NCBI GenBank assembly: GCA_016874845.1
Contig: VGSZ01000033.1
Span: 1 to 28,990 of the forward strand
From: Deltaproteobacteria bacterium
GTDB taxonomy: Bacteria > Myxococcota > UBA727 > VGSZ01
Length of the DNA stretch: 28,990 nucleotides
Direction: 5' to 3'
Shown here piece by piece: positions 27,628 through 28,990 of the stretch. A program made the position numbers and the translations under genes. The first letter of the stretch is position 1. Every line of letters begins with the position of its first letter. The notes beneath the pieces are model-generated. The model saw only the letters and a list, made by a program, of their open reading frames with translations, ran no database searches and was not told where the DNA came from.

Positions 27628-28990
27628 TCATTCGTCGATCACGTTCCACCACGCGGTGGCGGGATCGTCGAGCATCGTCCACGGCGCGCGCTCGAGGTTG
27701 GTGCCGCAGTGCGCCTCGCCGAACAGCTCGTGGTAGCTGGCAAAGACATCGACGAAGACAACGTCGAGGCCGGTGTCGGCGAGCGCGGCGCGCGTGGCCT
27801 GCTGCCAGACGTCCTGGCCGTCGAGCTCGGGGCCCTCGGGGTCGGGCACGAACAGGCGGTCACCGACGGTGACGAGGTTCTGGATGCCGGGGTTGAAGGC
27901 GACGACGAGGCCGTCGCTGTCGGCCTCTTCGTACAGCACCGGCACGGCGCGGAAGACGTCCTCGTGCAGACCGAGGGCGGTCTGCAGCTCGGTCTGGATC
28001 GAGTCGATGCGCGCCTGCGCCGCCTCGTTCAACGCGAGGAAGTTCGGCGCGGCGAGGATCTGGTCGGCGGTGTAGCTCGCGGCGCGGCCGGCGAAGACGA
28101 CGGCGTCGCCGCGGCCGGCCTGCTGCGCGGCCAGCAGGCTCGCGCGGGCCAGCGCCGGCGACGCGATCACGACCACGAACTGGTGCGCGCCGCCGCCGTC
28201 GCGGTCGGGCACGAACTGAAAGACCTCGTCGATGTGGCCGACGGAGAGCCACTCGGACGACAGCTCGACGGCGGGGCCCTGCACCTCCTGCGCGTTCAGG
28301 AACGCGACCTGCTTCTCGTTCATCGTGTCGACATTGCGCGCGCCCGACAGCGTCGACGTGCCGCCGCCGTACAGCAGCCGGCCGAAGGGGTGCAGCGTCG
28401 TCGGCGGCGAGACCTCGAGGTTGCCGCCGTAGTTGTGCGAGCTCGGCGCGCCGCCCGGGTAGAAGAAGCCTCGGTCGGCGCCGAGCCACTCGCCGGGGAC
28501 GAACGCGTCGAGCCCCTGCCCGCCATAGTTGCGCTCGAGCTGCAGCGCCGTCGTCATCTCCCGGGGGCCCGCCTTGCCCGGCACCACCTGCGTGCCGAGC
28601 TCCCAGCTGTCCTGGATCCAGCGGTCGAAGAAGTATGCGTCGCCGTCGGCGGCGTAGATCTCGACCCCCGAGGGCAGCCCCGGCGTCGTGCGCAGCGCGG
28701 CCATCAGCGCCCGGTTGTGGTCTTCGCCGCGGGGGATGTCCACCACGAACAGCCGCCGCGGGGGCTGCAGGTTGTCAGGGAACAAGACCGGCGCGGCCCG
28801 CAGCTGCACGACGTCGGTGGACACCACCGTGGTGTCGTCGCCCTCGCCGGCCTCGACGGTCAAGGTCAGCGTCACCACTCCGTCCCAGTCGGCGGTGCGC
28901 CCGGTCATCGCCTCGAGCCGCAGCACGACGTCGTCGTCGCCGGCGCCCTCCACCTCGCCGCGCTCAGCCTGCGCGCCGGTCACCACCCGG
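27628..28990 (-). CDS. protein-arginine deiminase (PADI-type) homolog; N-terminus lies beyond the window end
   Basis: GNLEVSPPTTLHPFGRLLYGG, EWLSVGHIDEVFQFVP and FGEAHCGTNLERAPWTMLDDPATAWWNVI match the eukaryotic PAD catalytic-domain signatures (GNLEVSPP, DWLSVGHVDE, GEVHCGTN..R.P...WWN), including the catalytic Cys. The ORF is open to position 28990. Confidence 0.85.
   Translation of the reverse strand, partial: RVVTGAQAERGEVEGAGDDDVVLRLEAMTGRTADWDGVVTLTLTVEAGEGDDTTVVSTDVVQLRAAPVLFPDNLQPPRRLFVVDIPRGEDHNRALMAALRTTPGLPSGVEIYAADGDAYFFDRWIQDSWELGTQVVPGKAGPREMTTALQLERNYGGQGLDAFVPGEWLGADRGFFYPGGAPSSHNYGGNLEVSPPTTLHPFGRLLYGGGTSTLSGARNVDTMNEKQVAFLNAQEVQGPAVELSSEWLSVGHIDEVFQFVPDRDGGGAHQFVVVIASPALARASLLAAQQAGRGDAVVFAGRAASYTADQILAAPNFLALNEAAQARIDSIQTELQTALGLHEDVFRAVPVLYEEADSDGLVVAFNPGIQNLVTVGDRLFVPDPEGPELDGQDVWQQATRAALADTGLDVVFVDVFASYHELFGEAHCGTNLERAPWTMLDDPATAWWNVIDE

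Follow-up and report, generated by a model that had tools for sequence, protein, structure and literature searches.

The window analyzed here is a 28,990-nucleotide stretch (positions 1 to 28,990, forward strand) of contig VGSZ01000033.1 from a Deltaproteobacteria bacterium (assembly GCA_016874845.1; Myxococcota, UBA727, VGSZ01), with a GC content of about 72%. Its right-hand end carries, on the minus strand, a gene for a homolog of the animal protein-arginine deiminases (PADs), followed on the same strand by a gene for a putative secreted HEAT-repeat protein and then by an MVP-like gene. As the initial annotation had recognized, the PAD gene is cut by the window end. Its TGA stop occupies positions 27630–27628 and the open reading frame (ORF) remains open to position 28990, giving a 3′ portion of 1.36 kb (27628–28990, minus strand) that encodes residues 138–590 and the stop; this assignment is based on Pfam and PDB matches, identity to the overlapping contig L001, and AlphaFold2 (AF2) and Foldseek analyses. 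The four motifs quoted in that annotation were all located in the minus-strand ORF: GNLEVSPP at 28402–28425, EWLSVGHIDE at 28225–28254, GEAHCGTN at 27697–27720 and WWN at 27643–27651. GC content by codon position (GC1 0.74, GC2 0.46, GC3 0.96) is that of a real gene. Terminator-like matches inside the ORF (27749–27767 and 28470–28485) are at chance level (3 against 1.6 expected), and a terminator and promoter scan around the PAD gene and its downstream partner yielded nothing informative.

Six further assemblies of the same population were found through an exact-sequence look-up of two downstream proteins (Logan SRR7053051, SRR7053298, SRR7053050 and SRR7008010; JGI 3300020220 and 3300020084). 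Contig L001 (16,955 bp) overlaps window positions 18840–28990 with 99.99% identity over 10,151 nt and extends 6.8 kb beyond the window end. On this contig the full PAD gene comprises 590 codons (L001:6395–8167), and the 5′ 411 nt lying outside the window were recovered from L001:6395–6805. The 453 residues encoded in the window are exactly residues 138–590 of the 590-residue product. The predicted start codon is GTG, preceded by GAGG at 5–6 nt, and the full ORF is intact in L001, L003 and L004.

The encoded protein is a true PADI-type homolog, as had been proposed. Pfam PF03068 (PAD) matched with E=1.4e-64 and 218.9 bits against a cutoff of 25, covering profile positions 2–391 of 395 (390 positions). 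Since PF04371 (PAD_porph) gave no match even at E≤1, we conclude that the protein is not of the Porphyromonas type (PPAD). Pfam likewise returned no match to the ADI or agmatine deiminase families, and the profile that matched was PF03068 rather than that of an unrelated amidinotransferase family. A phmmer search of the PDB retrieved solely vertebrate PADs (PAD1, E=7e-51; PAD4, 7.4e-46; PAD3, 9e-45; PAD2, 5e-43). The AF2 model, built on a 36-sequence alignment, has a mean predicted local distance difference test (pLDDT) score of 87.7 and a predicted template modelling score (pTM) of 0.86, and is disordered only at residues 1–36. When this model was compared with the PDB using Foldseek, all of the top 50 matches were human PAD1, PAD4, PAD3 and PAD2, the best being 5HP5 (human PAD1; E=1.5e-48, TMq 0.81, 572 columns). 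Because the alignments span 566–580 columns, the middle domain is matched as well as the catalytic domain.

The protein begins with a signal-like hydrophobic stretch ending in Cys28 (residues 1–28, MRVPCPSCHSFVTVALVLDALVLGSSGC), which is followed by a Pro-rich linker (residues 29–45), an Ig-like domain with the acidic motif FLANVDDDNGDGQRDRQD...DEDM (residues about 46–190) and the PAD_C domain (residues 193–576). Within the window, these correspond to the end of the PAD_M-like domain (28825–28989) and the whole of the PAD_C catalytic domain (about 27673–28824), both on the minus strand. Pfam gave no PAD_M match in the query itself; PAD_M (PF08527) was matched in 15 of the 36 aligned relatives. 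PAD_N was matched only in newt PAD3, included in the 36-member alignment as an animal reference, and neither in the query nor in its bacterial relatives. In many relatives a PKD domain is inserted between the lipobox and PAD_M, but not in the subclade of the query; in the query itself, only the 17 residues of the Pro-rich linker separate the lipobox Cys28 from the PAD_M-like start at about residue 46. The N-terminal part, which could not be assessed in the initial annotation, thus has a PAD_M-like domain and a putative lipoprotein-type signal and no PAD_N. The protein is a two-domain PAD, consisting of a PAD_M-like Ca-binding Ig domain and a PAD_C pentein domain.

Functional residues were mapped by HMMER alignments to PAD4 and PAD1 chains and by a MAFFT alignment of 89 homologs; the PAD4 chain numbering (offset 3) was checked against D350, H471, D473 and C645. 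The catalytic signatures, predicted to be intact, are so. Asp264 (codon 28609–28611, in the motif DRWIQDSWE; HMMER alignment and column counts), His389 and Asp391 (28228–28236, within EWLSVGHIDE) and the nucleophile Cys565 (27706–27708, within GEAHCGTN), all read from the minus strand, align to PAD4 D350, H471, D473 and C645, and all four are invariant in 89/89 homologs. The pocket residues W261, V387 and H557 correspond to PAD4 W347, V469 and H640; W261 and V387 are likewise invariant in all 89, and H557 is replaced by Phe in 12 cyanobacterial sequences and one other. Alignment of the Ca sites with human PADs was favorable in part: ligands of Ca1 and Ca3–5 are present in the query, but those of Ca2 are replaced. 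The Ca1 ligands Q263 (28612–28614, minus strand), E267 (28600–28602, minus strand) and E329 are the counterparts of PAD4 Q349, E353 and E411. The PAD_M ligands N78, D80, D82, D89 and D101 (PAD4 N153, D155, D157, D165 and D179) are invariant in alignment A1 and in the query subclade, and near-invariant in the partner-linked clades. The Ca-switch position (PAD4 D388, PADI2 D389) is Asp in the query (D309).

The query N-terminus ends ...ALVLGSSGC28, with non-canonical residues at positions −3 to −1. In most relatives the aligned Cys is preceded by a canonical L/V-A/G-G/A-C lipobox. A scripted pattern recognized a lipobox in 68 of the 105 listed database homologs, and most of the rest show one by eye. 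Locus counts in this work rest on 80 related genome loci, and in these a lipobox was found in 37 PAD homologs. These observations suggest that the PAD is exported via a lipoprotein-type signal and that Cys28 is probably lipidated. Cummings et al. 2021 (PMC8826395) and Harris et al. 2020 mention neither a signal peptide nor a lipoprotein nor an operon partner, and the words 'secreted' and 'periplasm' are absent from the former. A literature search, limited in extent, turned up no specific account of PADs that are exported or are lipoproteins in Myxococcota, Planctomycetota or Bdellovibrio, which is weak evidence that they are unreported.

Directly downstream of the PAD lies the partner gene (26715–27611, minus strand), which encodes a protein of 298 residues, predicted to be secreted and of the HEAT-repeat (alpha-solenoid) type from Pfam matches of its homologs, an AF2 model and synteny. 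Direct reading of the sequence shows a spacer of 16 nt between the PAD stop and the partner ATG (27612–27627, minus strand) that contains the Shine-Dalgarno sequence GGGAGGA, which points to co-transcription and coupled translation of the two genes. The partner has an N-terminal Sec-type signal followed by a Ser-rich linker. Its query copy has no Pfam match at E≤1; HEAT_2 (PF13646) was matched in 11 of 15 partner homologs, and the AF2 model (pLDDT 84.1) is an all-helical, 13-helix solenoid. The query copy also contains a low-complexity segment, GDADRADANRADADRADADH, an imperfect RADA-type repeat ((RADA)n) at window positions 27125–27185 (minus strand), and this insertion is absent from all 14 homologs.

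The two-gene arrangement is conserved. With a profile built from 15 database proteins, the partner was detected directly 3′ of the PAD gene and on the same strand in 25/80 loci. An iterated profile raised this to 42/80, in addition to L001, L087 and L088. For the iterated profile, ORFs were trimmed at the PAD end to exclude out-of-frame PAD sequence; untrimmed stop-to-stop ORFs, which overlap the PAD 3′ end, gave the same picture. Partner-positive loci come from Myxococcota, Polyangia, Bdellovibrionales, Planctomycetota and several further groups, and no partner was found in the 12 cyanobacterial, five actinobacterial and two archaeal loci. Nannocystis sp. RBIL2 (L053), the sole cultured organism among the sampled loci, has no partner either. 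Independently, all-vs-all BLAST clustering of neighbors recovered the same partner gene in 40 of 44 loci and no further conserved PAD neighbor. When the MVP-like, 815-residue, PilZ, Fur, 533-residue and hydrolase proteins were used together with the partner in tblastn searches of the 80 loci, only the 298-residue partner recurred. The three closest relatives, at 79, 75 and 70% identity, likewise have a HEAT_2-like gene after the PAD gene, encoding 278–286 residues. Lipobox and partner are strongly associated: 34 loci have both, three only the lipobox, eight only the partner and 35 neither (Fisher p=1.2e-11). Two of the three lipobox-only loci are on contigs that end just after the PAD gene, and four of the eight partner-only PADs are 5′-truncated. 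Three Planctomycetota loci (L029, L023 and L021) have a second HEAT-partner-like ORF at a distance of 7–10 kb downstream from the PAD pair, which may represent a paralogous module or an additional partner copy.

To place the query among its relatives, we relied on database searches and on a tree of the catalytic domain. A word-indexed search retrieved 105 PAD homologs, nearly all metagenomic or from metagenome-assembled genomes (MAGs), several of them named 'protein-arginine deiminase' by JGI. When 1.84 billion 50%-identity representatives were searched exhaustively, there were 1,787 matches at E≤1e-3, 1,203 at E≤1e-10 and 256 at E≤1e-30, and species-representative genomes contained at least 569 confirmed PAD stretches. 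Among the stretches listed, the best were from Myxococcota or 'Deltaproteobacteria' MAGs (57–62% identity), and those of lower rank were from Bdellovibrionales, Planctomycetota, Acidobacteriota, Polyangia, cyanobacteria, actinobacteria and Methanophagales archaea. In the tree, which is neighbor-joining only and without support values, the query falls in a Myxococcota/Bdellovibrionales clade beside Planctomycetota. Newt PAD3 groups elsewhere with cyanobacteria, reproducing the published topology. By its tree placement, its lack of PAD_N and its loss of Ca2 ligands, the query lies outside the three-domain cyanobacterial/animal PADI clade. The search also brought up PF03068-type PADs of about 630–650 residues in MAGs of ANME-1-type Methanophagales archaea (L037 and L039). 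These lack both lipobox and HEAT partner, and in the tree they group with an Oceanospirillales MAG and Paenibacillus, beside two actinobacterial PADs.

The family has been surveyed before. Cummings et al. 2021 (PMC8826395) counted 295 bacterial species with PADI orthologs, among them 56 cyanobacteria, 136 actinobacteria and 69 proteobacteria, and distinguished a three-domain cyanobacterial/animal type (clade Ai), to which Ca sites 2 and 4 are exclusive, from a two-domain type, found in fungi, actinobacteria and proteobacteria, whose PAD_M is divergent. That article also reports citrullination of proteins by cyanobacterial PADI. Harris et al. 2020 (bioRxiv 10.1101/2020.07.16.207027) collected 837 bacterial PF03068 PADs, showed that the citrulline of citrulassin is made by a Streptomyces albulus PAD, and noted that many proteobacterial PADs come from aquatic and sediment metagenomes and that the genomic contexts are 'highly diverse'. 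The cyanobacterial and the Streptomyces enzyme set a precedent for activity among bacterial PF03068 proteins. The initial annotation held true PADI homologs to be rare in bacteria; they are indeed uncommon per genome, but the 295 species, 837 proteins, at least 569 stretches and 1,203 clusters show them to be well documented. Nor is a bacterial homolog notable in itself, since these two surveys already map the family across bacteria. The query is a further member of the known two-domain bacterial PADI kind.

We consider it likely that the query is an exported, Ca-dependent peptidyl-arginine deiminase that works with its dedicated HEAT partner on extracytoplasmic targets. In this model, the lipoprotein-type signal would export the pre-protein, Cys28 would be lipidated, and the PAD would be tethered in the envelope or on the cell surface. 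There, plentiful Ca2+ could occupy the retained Ca1 and Ca3–5 sites and order the active site, so that Cys565, together with His389, Asp264 and Asp391, would hydrolyze the guanidinium group of peptidyl-arginine to give citrulline. The PAD would be co-transcribed with the secreted HEAT protein and would probably act alongside it, the latter serving as an adaptor, a chaperone or an inhibitor. Targets would be extracytoplasmic proteins or peptides, either of the cell itself or of other organisms. The partner might also be a substrate, and the layout of the two genes fits an immunity-type inhibitor and an adaptor equally. Of all this, the sequences and models directly show the family, the fold, the intact catalytic residues, the domain architecture and the conservation of the gene pair and of the signal peptide, from which export and lipidation, Ca dependence, the peptidyl-arginine substrate and the part played by the partner are inferred.

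Several observations weigh against this model. The Ca2 ligands are lost (PAD4 E351, D369 and S370 align to S265, Q287 and L288), whereas column counts show the E/D/S set retained in cyanobacteria and in the animal sequence, and Cummings et al. 2021 (PMC8826395) note that Ca is probably a regulator in another way in PADs from outside the cyanobacteria. In the substrate-binding segment, Arg290 (PAD4 R372) does not vary in alignment A1 or within the query subclade, though it does among all 89 homologs. The column of PAD4 Arg374, which contacts the substrate backbone, is occupied in the query by Gln295 (28516–28518, minus strand), which follows an inserted NYGG loop whose alignment is uncertain. 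Seven of the eight members of the query subclade have Gln at this column and one has Ala; Arg occupies it in every cyanobacterial, actinobacterial, archaeal and animal sequence, as in most of the other clades. The substrate-binding loop may therefore be altered, with the reservation that this placement depends on the alignment. This is the single feature that calls for caution in supposing that substrates are recognized as in animals: substrate recognition may differ from that of the animal PADs, a non-protein guanidino substrate is conceivable, and peptidyl-arginine deiminase activity in the query clade is itself deduced from conserved residues. The relatives have more canonical lipoboxes than the query, which reads L-G-S-S-G-C and has an Asp in its hydrophobic region, and its GTG start is a predicted one. 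As for the partner, Foldseek matched it weakly (E about 1e-2) to alphaRep, armadillo, HEAT, importin and bilin-lyase proteins, and any role given to it is conjecture.

The same pair of genes could encode an antagonistic effector and its immunity protein: the exported PAD would harm envelope or surface proteins of competitors or prey by citrullinating them, and the secreted HEAT protein would shield the producer by inhibiting the PAD in the producer's own periplasm. Both products are predicted to be exported, and a small gene directly downstream on the same strand, in variable genomic contexts, is a layout typical of effector-immunity pairs. The module also occurs mainly in Myxococcota, Bdellovibrionales and Planctomycetota, the first two being lineages known for predation. 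However, the PAD has no secretion-system or toxin-delivery domain, no type VI secretion or contact-dependent genes were seen near it in the window, in L001 or in the three closest relatives, and there were no PADLOC matches. Loci usually have a single module, apart from the second HEAT-family ORFs of L021, L023 and L029. We regard this possibility as unlikely; it is a sub-hypothesis about the role of the partner within the exported-deiminase model and does not contradict it. Tailoring of a peptide made on the ribosome and modified after translation (RiPP), as for citrulassin, or breakdown of free arginine or small guanidino compounds for nitrogen appears decidedly less likely still. RiPP deimination on a distally encoded substrate is the only genetically proven function of a non-cyanobacterial PF03068 protein, and the altered loop at the Arg374 equivalent could mean an unusual substrate. 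Nevertheless, the lipoprotein signal points to a location outside the cytoplasm, in contrast to the maturation of RiPPs inside it, neither the window nor L001 showed any RiPP genes, and the fold and the W261/V387/H557 pocket match peptidyl-arginine deiminases rather than ADI or agmatine deiminase. That the gene is a fragment or encodes a dead enzyme is scarcely credible, even with a truncated gene in the window and changes in the Ca2 ligands and the Arg374 equivalent. The truncation is due to the contig end alone, and the high GC3, the confident AF2 model, the intact ORF in three assemblies and the invariant catalytic residues led us to reject both the pseudogene and the pseudoenzyme readings.

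We also considered a functional tie between the PAD and its MVP-like neighbor, in which the PAD might be carried by a vault-like particle of the bacterium or might modify it, since the initial annotation had found their adjacency notable. The MVP-like protein (24031–26541, minus strand; 836 residues) matches Pfam MVP_shoulder (8.7e-23) and Vault_3 (5.2e-9), and Daly et al. 2013 had already pointed out such proteins in the myxobacteria Corallococcus and Plesiocystis. The PAD, partner and MVP-like genes are all on the minus strand, no terminator is predicted in the 173-nt gap before the MVP-like gene, and six independent assemblies of the same population share this arrangement without change. 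Beyond this population, however, the adjacency is not conserved. In tblastn searches (E≤1e-5), no MVP homolog was found within 10 kb of the PAD gene in any of the 80 loci, nor does one appear in the gene tables of the three closest relatives, where the gene after the PAD pair encodes an NHL-repeat protein, a 291-residue protein or a 400-residue protein. On the contig of P0002, the upstream MscS-RecX...Fur synteny is kept and MVP is still missing. Clustering of neighbors, as described above, singles out the HEAT gene alone. Furthermore, no signal-like hydrophobic stretch was seen by eye at the MVP-like N-terminus (MDDRGNKRDLVLAPGEY...), and since the PAD and its partner carry predicted signal peptides, different compartments would be expected. 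We therefore rejected a PAD–MVP linkage, which we hold to be very improbable, and the MVP-like gene is treated as an incidental neighbor outside the system.

Other features of the surroundings are recorded here. An IstB_IS21 ATPase match (E=1.2e-45) lies at window positions 18024–18740 (plus strand), beside the break point at 18840, and the fact that L001 and L002 both end at this position fits an IS21-family repeat breaking the assemblies. Convergent with the MVP-like gene is a gene for an 815-residue protein (21557–24004, plus strand) with N-terminal hydrophobic segments, a TPR-like C-terminal sequence and a weak Rce1-like CAAX-protease match (E=1.1e-3, below the Pfam cutoff). A 1,643-codon ORF at 11832–16763 (plus strand; GC3 0.93) has only a weak Kelch-repeat match (E=3e-6, below the Pfam cutoff) and is a large uncharacterized repeat protein. 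Outside the window, about 1 kb upstream of the PAD gene and across a Fur-family gene, L001 encodes a 533-residue protein (L001:3805–5406, minus strand) ending ...DWGAHCLSNVLPY, whose weak PAD_porph match (E=0.041) hints that it may be a second pentein or guanidino-modifying enzyme near the PAD; it has no sequence match in the PDB and is not beside the PAD in the closest relatives. No informative match came from scanning the PAD, its partner and the MVP-like and 815-residue proteins with NCBIfam and PADLOC, or the 533-residue protein with PADLOC.

On its own, the query PAD adds one sequence to a surveyed family and matters little; because two published surveys already map that family, a bacterial PADI as such carries little importance, and since the query lies outside the cyanobacterial/animal clade, it has no bearing on the debate over the origin of animal PADIs. 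Of the findings, only the conserved module of exported PAD and HEAT partner may be new. We tentatively put forward the broader idea, which we think possible but would not yet favor, that a large bacterial PAD clade (Myxococcota, Bdellovibrionota, Planctomycetota and others) represents a previously undescribed exported two-component citrullination system, composed of a lipid-anchored Ca-dependent PAD and an obligate secreted HEAT partner. If true, citrullination would take place in the periplasm or outside the cell, with surface proteins of prey, of competitors or of the cell itself as conceivable targets, and the PAD fold would have an extracytoplasmic role in bacteria, distinct from its intracellular roles in animals, cyanobacteria and Streptomyces. 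The lipoprotein signal and the adjacent HEAT gene are present in about half of the bacterial PAD loci sampled, which provides a testable handle on the non-cyanobacterial PADs, and the PAD–HEAT module counters the view that bacterial PADs lack a conserved gene neighborhood.

Among known systems, the query is closest in kind to the two-domain PADI type (Cummings et al. 2021). Both have the PF03068 domain without PAD_N, the PAD_M-like domain of the query being undetected by Pfam; both keep the catalytic residues and the Ca1 and Ca3 sites but not Ca2; and both lie outside the cyanobacterial/animal clade by neighbor-joining. The query differs in its predicted lipoprotein export signal and conserved HEAT partner, which are unmentioned in PMC8826395, and in its subclade the equivalent of Arg374 aligns to Gln. 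The Ca-switch Asp is reported as Gly in actinobacterial and fungal PADs (PMC8826395), whereas the query has Asp309. The actinobacterial PADs in the sampled loci have neither lipobox nor HEAT partner and are separate from the query in the tree. Like the query, the Streptomyces albulus PAD is a bacterial PF03068 enzyme that keeps the catalytic and many Ca-binding residues and whose gene lies away from any obvious substrate gene.

With vertebrate PAD1–4 (1WDA, 5HP5, 4N2x) the query shares the fold of PAD_M together with PAD_C (TMq about 0.8, 25–29% identity), the catalytic tetrad, the Ca1 site and the acidic Ca cluster of PAD_M. It lacks their cupredoxin-like PAD_N domain and Ca2 ligands, and has instead a loop insertion at the Arg372–Arg374 segment, a predicted lipoprotein signal and a dedicated operon partner. 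Animal PADs are cytosolic or nuclear. PPAD of Porphyromonas gingivalis is an exported, surface-associated peptidyl-arginine deiminase that acts on extracellular proteins. It could be a working analog of the query, although it belongs to another family (PF04371) of the pentein superfamily. PPAD is Ca-independent (Harris et al. 2020), and the query, which has no PF04371 match, does not belong to its family.

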